DNA from: Acidobacteriota bacterium
Lineage (GTDB): Bacteria; Acidobacteriota; Terriglobia; Terriglobales; SCQP01
DNA length: 64,000 bases
Reading direction: 5' to 3'
Assembly (NCBI GenBank): GCA_027314025.1
Contig: DAHVCP010000050.1
Span: forward strand, 5,753 to 69,752
Part shown: one piece after another, positions 39,184-63,760 of the stretch
Layout of the letters: the number at the start of each line of letters is the position of its first letter
Position numbering within the stretch: the stretch's first letter is position 1
Translations under genes and position numbers: made by a program
The notes under the pieces: generated by a model
Seen by the model: only the letters and a program-made list of their open reading frames with translations
The model's database searches: none
Told to the model about the DNA's origin: nothing

Positions 39184-40698
39184 TTAGCTTGCATCCACCG
39201 TCCCTGGGTGCTCCGAGGGCCCGTCCGGCGATGCGGGTCGGTCCGAGTGAATGGGGATGCCGCTGATCAGGCCCTGATAGTGGATGAGGCGCTTGCCGAG
39301 AATCACCACGCCCTTAGACGTGATCTCATACTCGCGAATATCCTTGGCGTGATTGCCGCCCCGCATCTTGATCACCACGAGAATCTTGCGAAGCTGGCCA
39401 TCGATGGACACGTACCGGAGCCGGACGATGTCGTCGGCGAGAAAAGAAATTGAGTAGGTGCTGAACGGGAACTCAGTAAACGACTCGTCCACTTCCACCG
39501 TGCTCAGAATCGTCACCCCAATTCCCGTCAAAGCGAAGATCATGCGATAGAGCGATTCGCGAAAGTCGGCACGGAAGCCTGGCGACAGAGCCATTTCAAA
39601 GCCAGCCAGCGAATCAATGACCAGACGCTTGGCGCCAATCTTCTGCACGGCGTCGAGGATCGAGTGCATGGTCTCATCCACGGAGAGATCCAGCGGACGC
39701 AAATAGAGGATCTCGAGCTTTCCTTCCTTTTGCGGCGTTTCCAGATCCAACCCTAGGTTGGCGGCCCGCTCCGCGTAGGCCTGCGGACGCTCCTCAAAGA
39801 CGGCCACGATTCCCGACTCTCCTTGGCGTAGGCCCTCGGCAATGAATTGGGTTGCCAGGACCGATTTCCCGGTTCCCGAAGGCCCGGCTACGAGGACGCT
39901 GTCGCCTTCGCGAACGCCGCCACCGAGCATGTTGTCCAACTCGGGAACCCCGAAGCAAAGACGCCTATGGCTGGGCGGATTCCTCACGCGTCCAGTCAGC
40001 CCGAACGTGCGCGAAAACGCCTGCACGCCGGCCTCGGTAATTCGGAAGGTGTGCAGTCCCGGCACGGAATTCTGGCCGCGCAGTTTGATAATCTGCAGCT
40101 TTCGTACGATTGAGTTCCGCTCCGGCGTCTGACGCAACCAGAACAGCCCATCGGCGACGGTGAATATGGGATTGTCGTGCAGCTCGTCCTCGGCATATTC
40201 GCCGATCAGAAACGTTGTCGCCTGCCAGCTGGCCAAGAACAGCGATAACCGTTGAATGAACGATTGCAGGCTGATATCACTCAACGGCTTCCGCGCCATG
40301 GTTCGGAAGGAGTCGACGACTACAAATGCGGGATTGAACCGTTCAACCTCCGCGGTAATCCCATTCAAGACCGCGCCCAGGTCACCATCTAAGACCACCT
40401 GGCTCAGATTGAGGAAGCGAATGGTCCCCGGCAGCTTGGCTGGATCGAAAAAGGTGTACTGTTGCTGGTATCGCAGCATCTTGATGGCAGACTCGCCGAG
40501 GACGGTGAAGTAGAGCGCGGGCTGCGCCGGAGTGGCGTTGGCGAAAACAAATTGATGCGCCAGCGTCGTCTTGCCGCTGCCTGGTTCTCCCGCGATGATG
40601 TTGAAGGAAAATTCTGGGAGACCGCCCCCCACAATCTCGTCAAGCCCCGGAACGCCGGTAGATAATTTGCGGATCGTTACTTTGTCTTGGGTGCTCAT
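39184..40698 (-). CDS. KaiC-like double RecA-domain ATPase
   Basis: Two KaiC/RecA-like domains with Walker A motifs GEPGSGKTTLA and GPSGTGKSVLA, Walker B-like VVVDSF and LVIDSL, and the C-terminal KMRGGNHAKDIREYEI block. Start MSTQDK; ATGA overlap with the upstream ORF. Confidence 0.85.
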   Translation of the reverse strand: MSTQDKVTIRKLSTGVPGLDEIVGGGLPEFSFNIIAGEPGSGKTTLAHQFVFANATPAQPALYFTVLGESAIKMLRYQQQYTFFDPAKLPGTIRFLNLSQVVLDGDLGAVLNGITAEVERFNPAFVVVDSFRTMARKPLSDISLQSFIQRLSLFLASWQATTFLIGEYAEDELHDNPIFTVADGLFWLRQTPERNSIVRKLQIIKLRGQNSVPGLHTFRITEAGVQAFSRTFGLTGRVRNPPSHRRLCFGVPELDNMLGGGVREGDSVLVAGPSGTGKSVLATQFIAEGLRQGESGIVAVFEERPQAYAERAANLGLDLETPQKEGKLEILYLRPLDLSVDETMHSILDAVQKIGAKRLVIDSLAGFEMALSPGFRADFRESLYRMIFALTGIGVTILSTVEVDESFTEFPFSTYSISFLADDIVRLRYVSIDGQLRKILVVIKMRGGNHAKDIREYEITSKGVVILGKRLIHYQGLISGIPIHSDRPASPDGPSEHPGTVDAS

Positions 40699-41150
40699 GC
40701 TTTTCTCGCGTGCTCGGAATGGTAATCGTCGAGGGCTGCCCCTGGCCACGCAACCCGCAGCAGGCTCAAGGTCAAGGCGTCGCCAAGAAATGTAACAAGC
40801 AGGCAGAGTAGGCGAGCGATGAGGACGCGTCCTCCCTCGTCCGCCGGGGACTCGGCAGCCTGATCGTTGTCATTCTTCATTGGATGGCCATACTCGCCCA
40901 GACCCTGCAGTGACCCGTCTCCCGCAATCCGGGCCGCGCTAAGGCCGGGAGCTTCCGTTTGGGCCAGCGTCAAGGCGCGGGCAGCGAACGCTTGAAAACC
41001 CGCGATGCCCGCAAACTCGCTCACGCCCTGGCGTAGCTTCTCGTAGACGCGAAGCGCTGCAGGCTCCGAGGGCGCGGGGAGCGGGTTAGCGGCGGCTTCA
41101 TAAATGAGAAGACGACGGGCTAAATCTCGCATTCCCGGGGCGACCGTCAT
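40695..41150 (-). CDS. Hypothetical helical protein, paralog A of the KaiC-associated pair
   Basis: 151 aa, collinear with the N-terminal ~135 aa of the 231-aa ORF upstream (RDLARxxxxxEA..RVYExLR..GFQAxAARALxLA..LIAxLLxLxxTFLGxAxTLxL). Its stop overlaps the kaiC-like start. Confidence 0.65.
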   Translation of the reverse strand: MTVAPGMRDLARRLLIYEAAANPLPAPSEPAALRVYEKLRQGVSEFAGIAGFQAFAARALTLAQTEAPGLSAARIAGDGSLQGLGEYGHPMKNDNDQAAESPADEGGRVLIARLLCLLVTFLGDALTLSLLRVAWPGAALDDYHSEHARKA

Positions 41151-55099: not shown

Positions 55100-55395
55100 C
55101 TACTCGCGTGCGGTTGGATGAGAGCCGCTGAATGCAAGTTGGCCGCTCGCCGGGCCGCGCCTCTCGCCCGGGCAAAGCGGGAGCGGAAAGGCCGCGATGC
55201 TCCCGGCGACCCCTTGGCGCGCGGGGGCCGGGCGGCCCGCCGAAGCAAGCAGTGCGGCGCGGCCCCCAGCGATGCGCCGACTGGGCTGGGGCGAACGGGG
55301 CCCCGCCCCAGCCGGCGCGCAAGCGGCGCACCGCGCCGCGCCGATCCAAGCGGGATGCCCCGCCTTGACGGGGCTGGGGCCCGCGCCATTCAATG
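55100..55395 (+). repeat. Dispersed repeat, family 1 (long form)
   Basis: ..GGCGCGCAAGCGGCGCACCGCGCCGCGCCGATCCAAGCGGGATGCCCCGCCTTGACGGGGCTGGGGCCCGCGCCATTCAAT. Confidence 0.75.
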
Positions 55396-55445
55396 TTGCT
55401 TGCGTTCGCTGGGAACAATGCGGCGTAATCTGCGTAGAAGAGCAA

Positions 55446-57896
55446 ATGGCTTCCGACCTGCGTTACGCGCTGCGACTGCTGCGGCAGGCGCCGGGCTTTG
55501 CCGCCATCGCCATCCTGGCGCTGGCGCTGGGCATTGGCGCCAACACGGCCATGTTCACCGTGGTGGACGCGGTGCTGATGCGGCCCTTGCCCTATCCCCA
55601 CGCGGACCGCATCGTGCAGGTGCGGAAAAGCTACCACGGCGGTGGCAGCCAGACCAGCACCTCGGTGCCCAACTATTTGGACGAGCACCGCTCGCCGGCC
55701 TTCGCCTACACTGCCGCTTACGATCCGCTGGCTACCGGCTTTAGCCTGCTGGGCCAGGGGCTGCCCGAGCGTTTCGCCGGCCTGCATGTGACGGCGGATT
55801 TTTTCCGCGTTTTGGGCGTCCAGCCGGTGCTGGGCCGGGACTTCGCCCCGAAGGAAGACCAGCCCGGGCATGCGCCGGTGGCGATCCTCAGCCATGGCCT
55901 GTGGAAGACGAAGTTCGGCGGCCGGGCGGACGTCATCGGCCAGGCGGTCACCTTCAATAACAAGGCCTACACCGTCATCGGCGTGCTGCCCAAGAGCTTT
56001 CGTTTTTCCCCCCGCGCCGATGTCTTAACGCAGCTGGACTTGCAGCATTCGCTGACCTACACCGACCGCCAGGCGAACATCTACAATGTCATCGCCCGCC
56101 TGGCGCCGGGGCTCAGCCTGGCGCAGGCGCAGGCGCGGACCAATCTGCTGGCCAACCAGCTCTCCAGCCGATTCTCCGCCGACAAAAACAGCGGCATTTT
56201 GCTGCGCCCGCTGCGGCGGGAGTTGTCCGGCCCGGTGCGCCCGGCGCTGCTGATCCTGCTGGGCGCGGTGGGCTTGGTGCTGCTGATCGCCTGCGCCAAT
56301 GTCGCCAACCTGCTGCTGGCGCGGGCGGCGGGACGGCATCAGGAACTGGCGCTGCGCACGGCGTTGGGCGCCGCCCCGGGGCGCATTGCGCGGCAACTGT
56401 TGACGGAGAGCCTGCTGCTGGCGTTTTTGGGCGGAGCGGCGGGGCTGCTGTTCGCCTATTGGGCGGTGCCGGCGCTGGTGGCGCTCAGCCCGGCCAGCCT
56501 GCCCCGCGTCACCGCCATCGGCATCAGCCCGGCGGTGCTGCTGTTCACGCTGGGCTTGTGCTTGGCCACGGGGTTGATTTTCGGCGTGGCCCCGGCGTGG
56601 CAGGCGTCGCGGCCCGACGTCAACGCGGTGCTGAAGGAAGGCGGCACGCGCGCCAGCGGGGGCCGCGGCCGGCGGCGGCTGCGCGCGGCGCTGGTGGTCA
56701 GCGAAATCGCCTTCGCCCTGGTGCTGCTGAGCGCGGCGGGCTTGCTGATCACCAGTTGGATGCGGCTGGAGGGCGTGGCGCCGGGCTTTCAGCCCGACAA
56801 CGTCCTGACCATGCGCCTGGCCATGGCGCCCAGCCGTTACAACAGCGCGCTGGCCGTGGCGAATCTCGATAGCGAACTCCTGCCGCGTTTGCAACGGCTG
56901 CCGGGCGTGCGCGCGGCGGCGCTTTCGGACGATTTGCCGTTGCAGGGCTGCCCGGATCTGCCCTATGAAATCATGGGCCGCCCGGCGCCGCCGCGGAACA
57001 ATTTCCCTGACGGCTATTACCACGTCGTCGCCGGCCACATCTTCGCCGCCCTGGGCATTCCTCTGCTGCGCGGCCGCACGTTCACCGCCGCCGACAACGC
57101 GCATTCCCAGCGCGTGGTCATCATCAACGAGGCGGCGGCGCAACGCTGGTGGCCGCACCAGGATCCGGTGGGCCAGGCCATCTGGATCGGCAAGCCGATC
57201 ATGGGCCCGGCGCTGACCGATCCCGGCCCGCGCACCATCGTCGGCGTGGTGGGCAATCTGCATCAGGGCTCGCTCGGCGACCGGCACATCCGCGACGCGC
57301 TCTACGTGCCCGAGTCGCAGGTGCCGGACGCGCTGATGGCGGAGTTCGTCAAGCTGCTGCCGCCGGCGGTGGTGCTGCGCACGGCGGGCGATCCCGCCGC
57401 CGTCACCGCGGCGGCGGAGCGCCAGGTTTGGGCGGTGGACCGCTCCATCCCCATCTACCAAGCCCGCACGCTCAACCAGATCATCGCCCGCTCCAACGCG
57501 CCGCAGCGCTTCAACGCCCTGCTGCTCGGCATCTTCGCCTTGCTCGCGCTGGCGCTGGCGGCGGTGGGCATCTACGGCGTCATGGCCTATTCGGTGGCGC
57601 AGCGCCAGCGGGAGATCGGCATCCGCATGGCCCTGGGCGCGGAGCGCGGCCGCGTGCTGCGGCTCATCCTGGGCGACGGCCTTAGGCTGGCGGTGCTGGG
57701 CGTGGTCATCGGCTGGGCTGCGGGCCTGGCCCTCACCCGCCTGCTCGCCAGCTTATTGTTCGGCGTCAAAAGCTGGAACCCGGTCATCTTCATCGCCACC
57801 GCCGTCGCCCTGACCGCCGTGGCCGCGCTGGCCAGCGTCATTCCCGCCCGCCGCGCCGCCGGCGTGGACCCCATCCAAGCCCTGCGCAACGAATAG
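55446..57896 (+). CDS. ADOP-type duplicated MacB/FtsX-like ABC transporter permease
   Basis: The N-terminus MASDLRYALRLLRQAPGFAAIAILALALGIGANTAMFTVVDAVLMRPLPYP is the hallmark of the acidobacterial duplicated orphan permease family. Two FtsX modules. No ATPase gene is adjacent. Confidence 0.85.
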   Translation: MASDLRYALRLLRQAPGFAAIAILALALGIGANTAMFTVVDAVLMRPLPYPHADRIVQVRKSYHGGGSQTSTSVPNYLDEHRSPAFAYTAAYDPLATGFSLLGQGLPERFAGLHVTADFFRVLGVQPVLGRDFAPKEDQPGHAPVAILSHGLWKTKFGGRADVIGQAVTFNNKAYTVIGVLPKSFRFSPRADVLTQLDLQHSLTYTDRQANIYNVIARLAPGLSLAQAQARTNLLANQLSSRFSADKNSGILLRPLRRELSGPVRPALLILLGAVGLVLLIACANVANLLLARAAGRHQELALRTALGAAPGRIARQLLTESLLLAFLGGAAGLLFAYWAVPALVALSPASLPRVTAIGISPAVLLFTLGLCLATGLIFGVAPAWQASRPDVNAVLKEGGTRASGGRGRRRLRAALVVSEIAFALVLLSAAGLLITSWMRLEGVAPGFQPDNVLTMRLAMAPSRYNSALAVANLDSELLPRLQRLPGVRAAALSDDLPLQGCPDLPYEIMGRPAPPRNNFPDGYYHVVAGHIFAALGIPLLRGRTFTAADNAHSQRVVIINEAAAQRWWPHQDPVGQAIWIGKPIMGPALTDPGPRTIVGVVGNLHQGSLGDRHIRDALYVPESQVPDALMAEFVKLLPPAVVLRTAGDPAAVTAAAERQVWAVDRSIPIYQARTLNQIIARSNAPQRFNALLLGIFALLALALAAVGIYGVMAYSVAQRQREIGIRMALGAERGRVLRLILGDGLRLAVLGVVIGWAAGLALTRLLASLLFGVKSWNPVIFIATAVALTAVAALASVIPARRAAGVDPIQALRNE

Positions 57897-58306
57897 CCGC
57901 AATCGCGCTCGGGCTTGATTGCGTCTCGCCAGCGGCGCGCCGTTCGCCCGGTGGGGACGAGCCGTCCGCGCCCCCGGGAAAGCGTTAATTTCCCGGCGCG
58001 GGTCGAGCCTTCCGCCGCAGGCGGAGAATAAATCTGCGGCGCCAACCCCGGCTTACGGCGCAGCGAAGGTGGAATAGCCGCCTCGGCTGGCGGACCGATG
58101 TTCCTCCGGCAAGGCCGACCGCAGCTCGCTGGGCGCCCGCATTCCCCGCCAATGCCGCCGCGGCTGACACGGGGGCGCGGGCCGCCGGTCCGTCCGTGGG
58201 GCGGCCCCCGGGGCTCGGCCCGGGGCAGCCGACGCCCGGAGGGACGAGGGCACGAGGGGCCCGCGGCCTTGAGGTCGCGGCCCTTTTTGGGGTAGCGTCT
58301 GGTGGG

Positions 58307-58744
58307 ATGAGCCCGAGCGTTGCCCGCCTGACCCTGTTCGCGCTGATCTCCGCGGTCGAGGAGGACCTGCGGCGGCTAATGCTGCTGCACCTAGGGCACC
58401 TGGACCCTCCGCGCGTGCTGCCACCCGAAATTCTCCGAAACGCGGCTGACCGCCTCGCGGGGGAGGGGGCCCGCGGGCACGCGCCGCCCAGCCTCCGCGA
58501 GCTGGCACCCTACCTTGACTTCGCGGATGCCTACAAGGTCCTGAACGCGTCTGGCGCCCACCTCCCCGCGCCCCTGTCCGCGCACCTGAGATCGCTGACC
58601 GAGTCCCTGGACGCGATCGCGCCCGTCCGCAACCGTGTGATGCACGGCCGCCCGCTCGAGGGCCGACCTTTGCGAGGGCCTTGCCGACAGCAGGGAACCG
58701 CGCTGGGATTCCGTTGGCGCTGCGCTGGGCCGGCTCAGGGCTGA
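58307..58744 (+). CDS. Fragment 1: Swt1-like HEPN domain
   Basis: ..LDAIAPVRNRVMHGRPLE carries the Rx4H HEPN motif. After ~58660 this frame becomes Arg/Gly/Pro-rich and meaningless, while frame 0 continues sensibly (ADLCEGLADSREPRWDSVGAALGRLRADPSYVLGL..). Confidence 0.7.
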   Translation: MSPSVARLTLFALISAVEEDLRRLMLLHLGHLDPPRVLPPEILRNAADRLAGEGARGHAPPSLRELAPYLDFADAYKVLNASGAHLPAPLSAHLRSLTESLDAIAPVRNRVMHGRPLEGRPLRGPCRQQGTALGFRWRCAGPAQG

Positions 58745-59789
58745 CCCCAGCTACGTGCTCGGGCTTACCATACCGGACGGGCGTGCGGAAAAGGGCGGCG
58801 ACCGGCACAACCTGCCGCAGCCGGACTTCGACGAAACCGGGTTCGTTGGCCGGAGGGAGGAGGCGCGTGCGGTCCTGAGCCAATGTCTGGGTACCTACCC
58901 GGTGGTTACAGTTCTCGGCGAAGGCGGGCTCGGGAAGACGGCACTGGCGCTGAAGGTAGCCTACGAACTGCTGGACCAGTCCGAGCAGAGGTTCGAGTCG
59001 ATCATCTGGGCCACCTCGAAGAGCAGCCAACTCACTGGCTCCGAGGTGGTCACGATCCGCGACTCGATCAAAACATCGCTCGGGCTGTTCGGCGAGGTCG
59101 CAGCCAGGCTTGCGGGCGCGAGGTTCGAGGACGCCGTGAACGAGGTGCTCGAGTACATGGAGGAGTTCCGGGTTCTCGTCGTTTTGGACAACCTCGAGAC
59201 GGTCGTCGACGAGCGGGTGAGGTCCTTCCTAGGGCGGCTTCCTGCCGGCGGCAAGGTTCTGATAACCTCGCGGGTCGGCCTGGGCGCCTTCGAGTACCCG
59301 TACAGGCTCAGGCCGATGGACGGGCGCGAGGCAGCGCAATTGCTGCGAGCAACCGCTGAGGCGAGGGGGATCGCCGACCTGTCGGGGGCCTCGTCGGAGC
59401 GTCTCCTGGGCTACTGCCGCCGCATGCACGACAACCCCGGATTCATAAAATGGTTCGTCTCCGCCGTCCAGGCTGGGAGGCGCCCGGAAGAGGTGTTGAG
59501 CAACCCGGCTACCTTCCTCAATTTTTGCATGCAAAACGTCTACGAGTACATCTCCGGCGAGGGGAGGGCGATTCTCAGGGCCATGCTGGCTGCGCCCGGC
59601 TACCAGAGCCAGGCCGGACTCTGCTTCCTCACCGAGCTCGGGGTCGACGACTTGCAGCGCGGGCTCCAGCAACTGCTCACGACCAATATGGCGGTAATGT
59701 CCGTGCAGGCGGGGGCCGCTGCCCACGAGACGCTCTACTCCCTCGCCGAGCTGCCGAGGGCCTACGTGACAAGGCACCATCCCCCTTAG
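58641..59789 (+). CDS. Fragment 2: NB-ARC/STAND P-loop NTPase module
   Basis: FVGRREE..VVTVLGEGGLGKTALA (Walker A), FRVLVVLDNLE (Walker B), VLITSR. Open in frame 0 from 58641. Confidence 0.75.
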   Translation, partial: CTAARSRADLCEGLADSREPRWDSVGAALGRLRADPSYVLGLTIPDGRAEKGGDRHNLPQPDFDETGFVGRREEARAVLSQCLGTYPVVTVLGEGGLGKTALALKVAYELLDQSEQRFESIIWATSKSSQLTGSEVVTIRDSIKTSLGLFGEVAARLAGARFEDAVNEVLEYMEEFRVLVVLDNLETVVDERVRSFLGRLPAGGKVLITSRVGLGAFEYPYRLRPMDGREAAQLLRATAEARGIADLSGASSERLLGYCRRMHDNPGFIKWFVSAVQAGRRPEEVLSNPATFLNFCMQNVYEYISGEGRAILRAMLAAPGYQSQAGLCFLTELGVDDLQRGLQQLLTTNMAVMSVQAGAAAHETLYSLAELPRAYVTRHHPP

Positions 59790-60849
59790 CCGCGCGGACC
59801 ACGCAAGGCTAACGAAGCGCTGGAGGCAGCTCGTCGCTGCGGCCGAGCAGGTGTCGGCGCCCGGCGAGTCCCGCAGGTACGCCTTGCAAAGTATCGCCGT
59901 CCGCTCCCGGGGCGACAGGCTGATCGCGCGGTACCTCATGGACGCCCTCGACTGCATCCGCTGCGGCCGCCTCGATGAGGCCGACCGCCACATCGGGAGG
60001 GCGCGCGAGCTCGCGCCAGGGTTTTTCGAGGTGCGCAGGATCGAGGCCCTGCTAAGGGTCGAGGAGGCGAATTACGTGGCGGCACGGGATTGCTACGAAG
60101 CTGCGCTCGACCTCGAGCCCAGGCACGCTCCGCTCCGGCTATTTTTCGCAAAGTTCCTGCTCCGACACCTGAGCGACGAGGATGGCGCTCTCGGTCAGCT
60201 GCGCGAGGCGCTCAAGCTGGACCCCGGCGCGACCGAGCTCCTGCTTGAGGCCGCGCGGGTAAATCTCTACCTCTCAAATTTCGAGGAGGCGAGGAGGGCG
60301 CTGGACGGCCTGATGGAGCGGGAGAACGCCGCCACCCCGTGGGAGCGGCGGAAGCTTCTCGATCTAGACCTCCAATACCACTCGCGGCTGGCCGAGCGGG
60401 AGTTGGCGGAGCACGACGCCGCCGGCGCCCTCACGCACCTCAAGCGCTTGCGTGCCTCTTACGAGCGGATCCCCGAGGCCTCGAGGGACGAAAAGACGGC
60501 CAAAACGGTCTCAAAAGTCCTGCCCACGGCCGCGTCCTGCCACTCCCGGCTTGAAGGGACCCTTCGCGCCGCAGCGCTCGAGTTTTGGGAGTGGCTCGCG
60601 GAAACAGCCGGCCGCCCCCGTCTCCCGGCATCGGAAGGGACTTTATCCGGGACCGTTGTGAGGCTGCTGGGGAGCTACGGTTTCCTTACGACCGACGACG
60701 GGGCTGAGCTTTACTTTGCTGCGCCGCTGGACCGCCCCGTCGAGGTCGGGGACCGCGTGACCTTCGCGCTCGGGAGCAACTCCGTCGGCCCGTGCGCGCA
60801 GAACGTCCAGCGCTCCGTGCAGGGGATGCCGCGCAGTCCGCAAACCTAA
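59770..60849 (+). CDS. Fragment 3: TPR array + cold-shock-like OB domain
   Basis: TPR-like helices (..ARDCYEAALDLEPRHAPLRLFFAKFLL..). The C-terminal GTVVRLLGSYGFLTTDDGAELYFAAP..VEVGDRVTFAL..GPCAQNV parallels CspA (GxVKWF..GFGFI.PDDG..DVFVH...G..V.F....GP.A.NV). Open in frame 1 from 59770. Confidence 0.7.
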   Translation, partial: QGTIPLSRADHARLTKRWRQLVAAAEQVSAPGESRRYALQSIAVRSRGDRLIARYLMDALDCIRCGRLDEADRHIGRARELAPGFFEVRRIEALLRVEEANYVAARDCYEAALDLEPRHAPLRLFFAKFLLRHLSDEDGALGQLREALKLDPGATELLLEAARVNLYLSNFEEARRALDGLMERENAATPWERRKLLDLDLQYHSRLAERELAEHDAAGALTHLKRLRASYERIPEASRDEKTAKTVSKVLPTAASCHSRLEGTLRAAALEFWEWLAETAGRPRLPASEGTLSGTVVRLLGSYGFLTTDDGAELYFAAPLDRPVEVGDRVTFALGSNSVGPCAQNVQRSVQGMPRSPQT

Positions 60850-60944
60850 ACCTTGGGCGGGGTTCAACCGCCGCGGCGTGGCCGTGCCCGTCCGGGGCCC
60901 TGGCGATAGAATGATTGTCATAACCGCTCGCTGGGGCACCCGCC

Positions 60945-61598
60945 ATGCGCACTGCCGAATTCGCCGCTTCTCCCGCCGCCGCCCGGCTCAGCCTGCGGCT
61001 TCCGGTGCCGGAAGAGGGCGCGCTACGGCTGCCGGCTGAGTTGCTCCCGTCCAGCGACCAGGAACTGCTCGCCCTGTGCGCCGAGAATCCCGGCTTGCGG
61101 ATTGAACGGGAAGCTGGTGGAGAATGGATCGTGATGCCGCCCACCGGTGGTTACTCGGGCCATTGGGGAATTCGCGTCGCCGCACAGTTGCAGAATTGGG
61201 CCGACCGCGACGGCTCCGGCGTCGCCTTCGATTCCAGCACCGGCTTCCGCCTCCCAGGCGGTCTCGCCCTGCGCGCCCCCGACGCCGCCTGGGTGCGCCG
61301 CGACCGCCTCATGGCCCTCAGCGAGCGCGAGCGCCGCGGCTTTTTGCCGCTCTGCCCAGACTTTCTGATCGAGATCGCCTCGCCCAGCGACCGCCGCGCC
61401 GACCTCGATGCCAAGATGGCCGAGTACCGCGCCTCCGGCCTGCGGCTCGGCTGGCTGATCCTCCCCGATTCCCGCAGCGTCGAAATCTGGACCCCCACGG
61501 AGACGACGGTCCTGGCGGCGCCCGCTACGATCTCCGCCGACCCGCTGTTGTCCGGCTTCGTGCTCGACCTCGCCGCCATCTGGCAGCCGCCATTCTAG
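60945..61598 (+). CDS. Uma2-family (DUF820) PD-(D/E)xK endonuclease
   Basis: ..RIEREAGGEWIVMPPTG..H.....A.L..W......G.AFDSSTGFRLP.....APDAAWV..PDFLIEIASPSD.....KM.EY...G...GWLI.P. matches the Uma2 layout. Confidence 0.8.
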   Translation: MRTAEFAASPAAARLSLRLPVPEEGALRLPAELLPSSDQELLALCAENPGLRIEREAGGEWIVMPPTGGYSGHWGIRVAAQLQNWADRDGSGVAFDSSTGFRLPGGLALRAPDAAWVRRDRLMALSERERRGFLPLCPDFLIEIASPSDRRADLDAKMAEYRASGLRLGWLILPDSRSVEIWTPTETTVLAAPATISADPLLSGFVLDLAAIWQPPF

Positions 61599-62449: not shown

Positions 62450-63760
62450 CTAGGAGCCGGGCGGCGGTGTTGGCCGGCTCGCGTTGGCTGCCGCGGCGGC
62501 GTCCAGCCGCAGCCCGGCGAAAAACGCCCGCTCAGCGGCGAGGGCTTGCGTGCGGACCGAGATGGCGGTGTCCAGCAGCACGAAGCCATACAAGGTGGGA
62601 GCCATGCGGTCCAGGTGCGGCGCCAGACGAAAATATTGCACCTTGGGCGACTTGCCTCGCGGCGGCATCCGCGGCGTTTCGAAGGCCAGGCCGGGGTATT
62701 TTGGCCTCCGCCAGGCGAAGACCGTGATCAAGCCATCGCCGCCCCCTTCCGGCTGGTAATAGCCCGGCTGCGACTCGGCATAGCCGCGGCAGCGGGCGAC
62801 GGGACACGCCGGTGGAGTGACCGCGGCTAGGCGCACGCCGCCGGTGCGAATCCGGGCGAATTGGTCCAGCGATTCACCGGGATGCGACGGCTGCACCATC
62901 AAGAGCAAATGCGGCGTGACCTCGGCCGTGCGTCCGCGGAACGGGCCCAGCGCGACGGCGACGGCGCAGGTGTCGTTGTGCAGCGGGTAAAACACCCACT
63001 TCCATTGTCTGCCGATGGGAAGCGCAAGTCCGCAGGCGTCGCTGGAATAGAGCATTCCGGCGGCGGTTCGCTCCGCGCTCCAGACCTTGGCGGGCGCGTA
63101 ATCGCGGCCGGCAACGGCGCGCCGCGTCAGGGTCCGCGCTTGGCGCAACACCGCCCGGTCGCCGGCATTGGGCGCCGCGTGCTCGCGGCTCAGGCGTCGC
63201 TCGGCGTAGAGCGCGTGCTCCGGCATGCCGGCGAACATGGCGCACTCTGCATAGGCGCGCCAGAAGCTTGGGGCAAGGCGGCGCGACGGGAACCGGTGCT
63301 CCACCTGGAGCAACAGGGTCATGCCTTGGGCGCTGCCGTTGCCGGTGCCGCAGAAAAAGGCCCCCAGCAGCCAGGGCGGGCGGGGATCGGCGGGCGCCAG
63401 GCGCGCGGCGGCGCGCAGATCGGCGACGGCGGCGGCGTAGGAGTTCGGCACGTCCAGGTTGTATGCGAAGGTGGCGGCGATGCCGGCGGCCAGCGCCGCT
63501 TCCTCGTTCCGCGGGGCGTGGGCGGCCGCCGTCTGGAGCGTTTTGCGGTCGCGCCGCAGCGCGGCGGCGGCTTGGGCGCGGAGCGGCGCCGAGCCCCGCG
63601 GAGGCCAAACGGCGACGATGGGCTCGATGCGGGCGAGGTCTTGCACGGCGGCCGCCGCCTGGGGTGGCAGCCGGCTGCGGTGCAGGACGGCGGTCTGCGC
63701 CGGCAGCGGCACGGCGAGCGCCAGGACGGCCAGCAGCCGCAGGCGGCATTGCAGCTTCAT
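62450..63760 (-). CDS. Hypothetical secreted protein
   Basis: Signal peptide MKLQCRLRLLAVLALAVPLPAQT. 436 aa of coding-like composition. No family recognised. Confidence 0.6.
   Translation of the reverse strand: MKLQCRLRLLAVLALAVPLPAQTAVLHRSRLPPQAAAAVQDLARIEPIVAVWPPRGSAPLRAQAAAALRRDRKTLQTAAAHAPRNEEAALAAGIAATFAYNLDVPNSYAAAVADLRAAARLAPADPRPPWLLGAFFCGTGNGSAQGMTLLLQVEHRFPSRRLAPSFWRAYAECAMFAGMPEHALYAERRLSREHAAPNAGDRAVLRQARTLTRRAVAGRDYAPAKVWSAERTAAGMLYSSDACGLALPIGRQWKWVFYPLHNDTCAVAVALGPFRGRTAEVTPHLLLMVQPSHPGESLDQFARIRTGGVRLAAVTPPACPVARCRGYAESQPGYYQPEGGGDGLITVFAWRRPKYPGLAFETPRMPPRGKSPKVQYFRLAPHLDRMAPTLYGFVLLDTAISVRTQALAAERAFFAGLRLDAAAAANASRPTPPPGS

Follow-up and report, generated by a model that had tools for sequence, protein, structure and literature searches.

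A fixed pseudogene in a Terriglobales-like host belongs to a horizontally moving single-gene STAND family with HEPN, NB-ARC, TPR and cold-shock modules

A single coding signal that crosses three reading frames occupies positions 58307-60849 (+) of the 64,000-nt stretch of Acidobacteriota bacterium DNA analyzed here (GCA_027314025.1, contig DAHVCP010000050.1, positions 5,753 to 69,752; hereafter, the window), between genes for a MacB/FtsX permease and an Uma2 endonuclease. It is a dead but otherwise ordinary member of an already catalogued STAND family that couples HEPN, NB-ARC, TPR and cold-shock (CSD) domains in one chain. The open reading frame (ORF) listing and three-frame translation resolve the signal into 58307-58663 in frame 2, 58665-59783 in frame 0 and 59785-60849 in frame 1, and dropping one base at each junction, i.e., compensating two +1 frameshifts, yields a corrected protein of 846 aa. 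The first fragment (58307..58663, +; residues 1-119) encodes most of a Swt1-like HEPN domain and ends just past its Rx4H motif, RNRVMH (58628-58645; residues R108-N-R-V-M-H113), which has a polar residue after the arginine. Its start codon is the ATG at 58307, which also opens a public gene call of 145 aa and is supported by alignment of the N-terminus MSPSVARLTL with MSYSxSRLTL of the family. The second fragment (58665..59783, +; residues 120-492) contributes the end of HEPN, the linker, NB-ARC, the helical domain and the winged helix, with GEGGLGKTALA starting at 58917 (Walker A GEGGLGKT, 58917-58940), Walker B LVVLDNLE at 59175-59198 and LITSR at 59259-59273. The third begins with a long connecting helix and about seven TPR-like repeats, the presumed sensor, which include the family-conserved LAPxYFEVHRVEA motif (59785..60633, +; residues 493-775). 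It closes with a divergent cold-shock-type OB fold (residues 781-833, 60649-60807), a short tail and the stop codon (60649..60849, +); the CspA-like stretch at 60649-60807 reads GTVVRLLGSYGFLTTDDGAELYFAAP..VGDRVTFAL..GPCAQNV. An earlier sequence-only reading of the locus had quoted these motifs and the frame-corrected length of 846 aa, all of which are present exactly in 58307-60849, and the motif strings in this gene are far beyond chance.

Each frame change traces to a discrete lesion. At the first (58658..58704, +), just after the Rx4H motif, about 20 nt are missing and the reading passes from frame 2 to frame 0 (+1): 46 nt lead from the RPL codons to the conserved Trp codon in the window versus 22 codons (66 nt; range, 21-24 codons) in homologues. 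The corresponding 7-residue gap after RPL is unique to the window copy in a 40-sequence alignment, and the residues lost, approximately seven, belong to the loop/helix that follows RPL, where the family reads RPLxFDDLxxTLDxAxxL. One deletion of about 20 nt thus accounts for both the gap and the first +1 shift, and it shortens the helix packed beside the Rx4H motif. The second lesion (59781..59789, +) is an extra C in a C5 run (59781-59785) that moves the reading from frame 0 to frame 1 (+1) and brings a TAG stop at 59787-59789 into play; removal of one C restores HHPLSRADH..KRWRQL, which aligns gap-free with KHHPVxxx..KRxxQL of the family.

These frameshifts had been regarded as something to be repaired, but they are genuine and fixed. 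The interval 57897-60944 is 100.000% identical, with zero gaps, in four assemblies that were retrieved with the downstream Uma2 gene as query, namely, two NCBI metagenome-assembled genomes (MAGs), GCA_027314005.1 (contig DAHVCO010000004.1) and GCA_027314945.1, and two Logan assemblies, SRR10333329 and SRR13766253. Copies L096 and L098 of the locus each show two differences from the window, at differing positions, in the adjacent permease gene, and the single-nucleotide polymorphisms that distinguish the haplotypes (56587, 56663, 57483 and 57488) all fall within that gene. The same broken gene is thus carried by at least three haplotypes, and sequencing error is therefore ruled out. A search for an intact allele or a nearer relative returned none: all recovered copies of the locus carry both lesions, and the best homologue is 46% identical. 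The window copy is a genuine pseudogene, and its loss of function follows from the ~20-nt deletion with its frame shift and from the 1-nt insertion with the second shift. Its inactivation looks recent, as judged from the coding-type GC content at third codon positions of the fragments (GC3, 0.81-0.84), the intactness of all invariant family residues and the kind of change at conserved positions: of 160 highly conserved columns, 15 deviate in this copy, mostly by I/V/L exchanges, compared with 6 (median) and no more than 14 in homologues. Programmed frameshifting was considered and rejected, since 77 of 80 genome homologues are uninterrupted single ORFs and recoding is not a trait of the family. 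The gene is also split in Ameyamaea chiangmaiensis (L030; 176+736 aa) and in an Acidobacteriaceae MAG (L073; 239+475 aa), the only clear cases among the 80 homologues, and possibly in a further one (L028); independent pseudogenization recurs in the family.

The sequence-only reading had staked its HEPN and CSD assignments on the scores of the frame-corrected protein, yet it is the homologues that establish both domains. NB-ARC is well above threshold (36.1 bits against a cut-off of 23.5; 5.4e-9), and so is TPR_19 (1.6e-9), with TPR_2 at 2.8e-6. However, CSD (PF00313) stays below its cut-off of 27, with 15.4 bits in context and 21.4 bits for the tail alone (E 2.2e-4; model positions 3-65 of 66), and HEPN obtains zero matches even at E<=10, in the frame-corrected protein included. 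Compared with the family, the CSD of the window copy is 11 residues short between strands 3 and 4 and reads LYFAA in place of FFHxS, with loss of the RNP2-like His; lineage variation, and not decay, could explain both features. The N-terminal domain is a putative HEPN by homology to relatives that do score.

In intact homologues, the four-part HEPN-NB-ARC-TPR-CSD architecture is real. The corrected protein retrieves 441 homologues (E down to 5e-229), of which the best 120 share 39-47% identity with it across 81-100% of its length; most of these are 845-950 aa long. Intact homologues of 845-880 aa with 39-46% identity number in the hundreds. Pfam scans of 40 members found NB-ARC and TPR_19 in every one, CSD in 32 (best, 6e-14) and HEPN_Swt1 in 15. 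When N-terminal domains were scanned alone, HEPN_Swt1 (PF18731) was matched by 27 of 34 at E<=1, the only other recurrent matches being Abi_2, RiboL-PSP-HEPN and DUF4145, all of the HEPN superfamily, and one member (P0083) exceeds the curated HEPN_Swt1 threshold (31.6 versus 27.5 bits; model positions 3-112 of 115). When the HEPN domain served as query in an exhaustive profile search, 264 clusters at 50% identity were returned with E<=1e-30, nearly all of them proteins of ~850 aa with an N-terminal HEPN, or fragments. The same layout recurs in Actinomycetota, Bacteroidota and one Clostridium MAG. Consistently, AlphaFold confidently folds the N-terminal domain as all-alpha (predicted local distance difference test score, pLDDT, 92.8) and places the motif where a long helix ends, and the full-length AF2 model of the homologue P0001 (pLDDT 85) shows a core of nucleotide-binding domain (NBD), helical domain 1 (HD1) and winged-helix domain (WHD), 14 TPR-like helices at 542-777 and a five-stranded barrel at 789-853. 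Foldseek searches with this model retrieved 6mfv, SAMD9, Sr35, ZAR1 and CED-4 with probability 1.0.

Conservation is unevenly distributed along the chain, with mean pairwise identities of 0.62 for the NBD, 0.39 for HEPN, 0.43 and 0.25 for the first (residues 541-690) and second (residues 691-775) portions of the TPR region, and 0.28 for CSD. The 40-sequence alignment shows no variation at R7, E18, D20, R49, D71, R108, R110, H113, R115 and P116 of the N-terminal domain and almost none in the Walker motifs or in the linker HNLPxPDFDETGFxGR. Across alignments of 40 and 50 sequences, the Arg and His of Rx4H are invariant, with conservation of 90% or more for the Asn. The first TPR half and its LAPxYFEVHRVEA motif are relatively well conserved, which suggests a conserved ligand. 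The RNP1- and RNP2-like motifs FGFI and FFHxS are conserved at 90% or more in the members that bear a CSD.

The C-terminal OB fold behaves as a variable module. Variants of ~780 aa, such as those of Nostoc, Vibrio, Shewanella and Rheinheimera, stop where the TPR region does and have no CSD; three members (P0011, P0085 and P0090) have S1 (PF00575) in its place; and the 935-aa member of Azospirillum sp. TSH64 (L013 10001-12808) carries two tandem CSD-like repeats. Since family members exchange it or do without it, the fold is probably not the primary sensor. CSD is also among the least conserved modules, and an exchangeable accessory that binds single-stranded nucleic acid would fit this pattern better than an obligatory second sensor. 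The dual sensing of protein and nucleic acid put forward in the sequence-only reading thus finds no support, given relatives in which the CSD is missing, replaced by S1 or duplicated.

Relatives were found in 387 of 185,579 species genomes (one genome per species) from at least 10 phyla. Their groups include Myxococcota, Cyanobacteria, Chloroflexota, Pseudomonadota, Actinomycetota, Bacteroidota, Planctomycetota, Spirochaetota, Acidobacteriota and one Heimdallarchaeota MAG. The archaeal relative, on a 5-kb contig of a Candidatus Heimdallarchaeota MAG (L062 3547-4986), is 45% identical over residues 1-444 and could be either a horizontal transfer or a binning contaminant. All-against-all BLAST and clustering of flanking ORFs in 80 loci uncovered no conserved neighbour or partner gene. 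The idea of an operon was rejected, the only recurrent ORFs being either generic (SDR, ABC and response-regulator families) or shadows of the gene on its antisense strand.

Homologue neighbourhoods had been proposed as a check for defence-island enrichment, and six of eight annotated contexts contain mobile- or defence-type genes. These are MobA/MobL (relaxase) with a serine recombinase; GIY-YIG, ORF6N, DUF559 and SLFN_AlbA_2; a TIR protein with IS4; a pair of integrases with a primase and a CHAT-TPR protein; MazEF and Phd together with an AAA_15/21 ATPase and a Tn7-like transposon; and three insertion sequence families with HicB, ThiF, an ImmA-like peptidase and a DUF4011 helicase-nuclease. 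The remaining two are housekeeping contexts, acyl-CoA carboxylase/mutase and groES/EL. In one island (L090 22063-22835, near P0096), the STAND gene is accompanied by a 1590-aa DUF4011-AAA_11/12-MTES_1575-DUF3320 helicase-nuclease, ThiF and a pair formed by a helix-turn-helix (HTH) protein and an ImmA-like peptidase. A nearest-neighbour census of 135 proteins from 34 loci, an uncontrolled count, assigned about a tenth to PADLOC models at E<=1e-10, among them type I, II, III and IV restriction genes, ShosA, PsyrA, PbeA and several PDC/HEC candidates. Relatives are also borne by Rhizobium megaplasmids, by a 65-kb Planococcus plasmid and by four IMG/VR contigs. On one of the latter (L091 1-10325; IMG/VR UViG_2636415801_000001), a CSD-less member follows an anti-repressor, a repressor-integrase fusion, a primase and a small-terminase-like fragment, a satellite-like layout in which the family member is a cargo gene. 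The family moves horizontally as a stand-alone single gene.

At the window locus, the Uma2-family gene for a putative restriction endonuclease (60945-61598, +; PF05685, E 7e-39) begins 96 nt downstream of the pseudogene; it is undisrupted and does not differ among the four assemblies. Upstream, the MacB/FtsX-type permease ORF (55197-57896, +) begins ~80 codons too early; public calls give 816 aa at ~55446-57896. GpsA of this acidobacterial host is 100% identical to P0121, with 'Terriglobales bacterium' (80%) as the next named relative. Near the locus, we detected no tRNA (the only one in the window is at 2200-2276), no GC anomaly and no obvious island boundary; promoter and terminator predictions at the locus gave nothing significant, and no paralogue of the gene was found within the window. 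Two further genes deserve mention. A 436-aa ORF at 62450-63760 (-), publicly called as a gene, has a GC3 of 0.86 and a hydrophobic N-terminus and no Pfam match at E<=1e-4, and 39184-40749 (-) encodes a double-domain KaiC-like ATPase (PF06745, E 1e-72) in this non-cyanobacterial, Terriglobales-like genome.

The domain combination, which the sequence-only reading did not recognize as described, was in fact catalogued in 2013 by Anantharaman, Makarova, Burroughs, Koonin and Aravind (Biol Direct 8:15, PMC3710099), whose Table 1 and text list Swt1-like HEPN fused to "STAND-ATPase, TPR, S1"; they also mention cold-shock-like C-terminal OB folds and predict a role in conflict or defence. Their examples (Npun_F6454, MED222_16016 and Desac_1927) have the same domain order and composition, a HEPN of the Abi2/Swt1 clade and an active Rx4H, and two of the genera concerned, Nostoc and Vibrio, also carry members here; architecture and taxa, rather than alignment, suggest that they belong to the same family. 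The window copy differs from them in being frameshifted, with a truncated HEPN helix and a shortened CSD. An unannotated phage cluster, phrog_24039 (PHROGs v4), corresponds to the family: residues 1-736 of the corrected window protein align with it (E 6e-197), P0001 and the relative from IMG/VR do so from end to end, and its profile of 780 positions represents the CSD-less variant. The literature searches made here yielded no experimental study of the family.

Among known systems, the closest in logic are Avs/AVAST proteins (Avs1-5, and Avs7-21 of Lee et al. 2026, PMC13581612), which share the layout of effector, STAND NTPase and TPR-like sensor, the spread as a single gene and an apparently frequent proximity to other defence genes. 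The family differs from them in its NB-ARC/AP-ATPase-like NTPase, in an effector that is a HEPN RNase and not a DNase, SIR2 or TIR, in a short (~240 aa) and comparatively conserved helical sensor, and in the extra OB fold. The effector-switch-sensor logic that had been borrowed from Avs stands as a reasonable inference from architecture, but PADLOC v2 matches the corrected protein to no Avs model, its only hits being spurious ones to TRIP13 and mad8 (E ~0.003-0.007). NCBIfam and PADLOC likewise gave no family-level match, only TPR fragments and a weak, CSD-like similarity to retron Se72. By analogy, the family would work like an Avs while belonging to no modelled Avs family. It is not a regulator of the GutR/LuxR type either: the reported Pfam matches of the window copy and of the scanned homologues include no HTH or LuxR-type family, and HEPN takes the output position. 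The 2026 survey of 589 STAND clades (PMC13581612) characterizes Avs7-21 and, in its main text, refers to HEPN solely in connection with a Streptomyces protein that is not a STAND.

The best structural matches are the PH0952-type archaeal STAND-TPR protein (PDB 6mfv), CED-4, ZAR1 and Sr35 (Foldseek E values between 2e-11 and 1e-6). In these proteins, too, helical repeats come after an NBD-HD1-WHD core, but the effector is a different one or absent, there is no OB fold, and TM-scores are low (0.2-0.3) since domain orientations differ. On the effector side, DARNA (PD-T7-3) is an N-terminal HEPN enzyme that is triggered by SSB-bound single-stranded DNA (ssDNA) and cuts tRNA anticodon loops (preprint 10.64898/2026.02.22.705581). 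DARNA and the stand-alone HEPN RNases ApeA, HepS and PrrC likewise have an N-terminal Rx4H HEPN, are activated by infection only and abort it through tRNA anticodon cleavage, and activity of the DARNA type requires HEPN dimers inside a higher-order oligomer; unlike the family, however, these enzymes lack an NTPase switch, and their helical C-terminal domain is unrelated. CoCoNuT type IV restriction systems (PMC11090510) also bring together cold-shock-like OB folds, HEPN nucleases and an NTPase motor, with predicted RNA targeting, but they are multigene, McrBC-derived and GTPase-driven rather than single-chain STANDs.

We consider it likely that 58307-60849 is a recently inactivated copy of a horizontally moving single-gene STAND family whose intact members are TPR-triggered, NB-ARC-gated HEPN RNases that abort infection. 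The domain order, the conserved catalytic and nucleotide-binding residues, the lesions, the stand-alone status and the mobility are observed here; the steps of the mechanism are drawn by analogy with Avs/NLR-type STANDs and HEPN enzymology. Ligand binding by the TPR region would release the ADP-locked NB-ARC and allow the protein to oligomerize, whereupon paired N-terminal HEPN domains would form composite Rx4H active sites. These sites may cut cellular or invader RNA (tRNA or mRNA), leading to growth stop and abortive infection, with the C-terminal OB fold most likely tethering the protein to single-stranded RNA (ssRNA) for substrate recruitment or tuning of activation. In the Terriglobales-like host, the gene can no longer perform this proposed function.

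The family could instead be a housekeeping or stress regulator, i.e., a nucleoside triphosphate-gated RNase that remodels cellular RNA when a conserved endogenous signal arrives and is targeted to RNA by its CSD, in the manner of MalT/GutR/AfsR-type STANDs but with RNase output instead of a DNA-binding domain. High conservation across phyla, which extends to part of the TPR region, would suit such a role, as would the loci set among core metabolic or chaperone genes, the name "GutR-like" given to members by the pipelines of the Joint Genome Institute (JGI), the absence of the family from PADLOC and the classical function of CSDs as RNA chaperones. However, a housekeeping gene would not be expected to occur in only ~0.2% of species genomes, patchily across phyla and outside any conserved operon, to travel with integrative elements, on plasmids and on a viral contig of satellite-like layout, to adjoin defence and toxin-antitoxin genes often, or to be lost without apparent consequence in the window host and split in two other genomes. 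We therefore regard a housekeeping role as unlikely.

Another possibility retains defence but makes the CSD a true second sensor, so that firing would need both a phage protein bound by the TPR region and phage ssRNA or ssDNA bound by the CSD. The strong conservation of the aromatic motifs FGFI and FFHxS in CSD-bearing members speaks for it, and HEPN defence triggered by nucleic acid has a precedent in DARNA, as does the joint occurrence of CSD and HEPN in the RNA-targeting CoCoNuT systems. Whole subclades that keep at least 40% identity nevertheless lack the CSD, others swap it for S1 or double it, and its mean pairwise identity is among the lowest of the modules, all of which makes an obligatory second input quite unlikely. 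A broader version, which we hold to be equally doubtful, casts intact members as an NLR-like immune receptor class in which the cold-shock or S1 OB fold recognizes nucleic acid (phage ssRNA/ssDNA or a guarded host RNA) alongside the TPR sensor and thereby licenses the NB-ARC-gated HEPN RNase; if true, this would be a STAND that reads RNA in addition to protein. Finally, that the frameshifts are sequencing or assembly artefacts, or are programmed, and that the full 846-aa protein is made is highly improbable and already largely refuted: the C5 homopolymer at the second lesion is a classic error site, and coding-type GC3 and all invariant residues are kept, but identical DNA comes from four assemblies, at least two sequencing runs and three haplotypes, the first lesion is a ~20-nt deletion of 7 conserved residues and no homopolymer slip, and nearly all homologues lack an ORF break.

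Collectively, these findings define a compact (~850 aa), single-gene family that is unusually well conserved across at least 10 phyla and is borne by plasmids, integrative elements and one viral contig of satellite-like layout, is missed by PADLOC v2 models, and adds a HEPN effector that is not represented among characterized Avs families. Natural variants with one CSD, with two, with none or with S1 in its place form a ready-made series for experimental comparison. The fixed pseudogene of the window is a small example of the rapid turnover expected for costly suicide-type genes.

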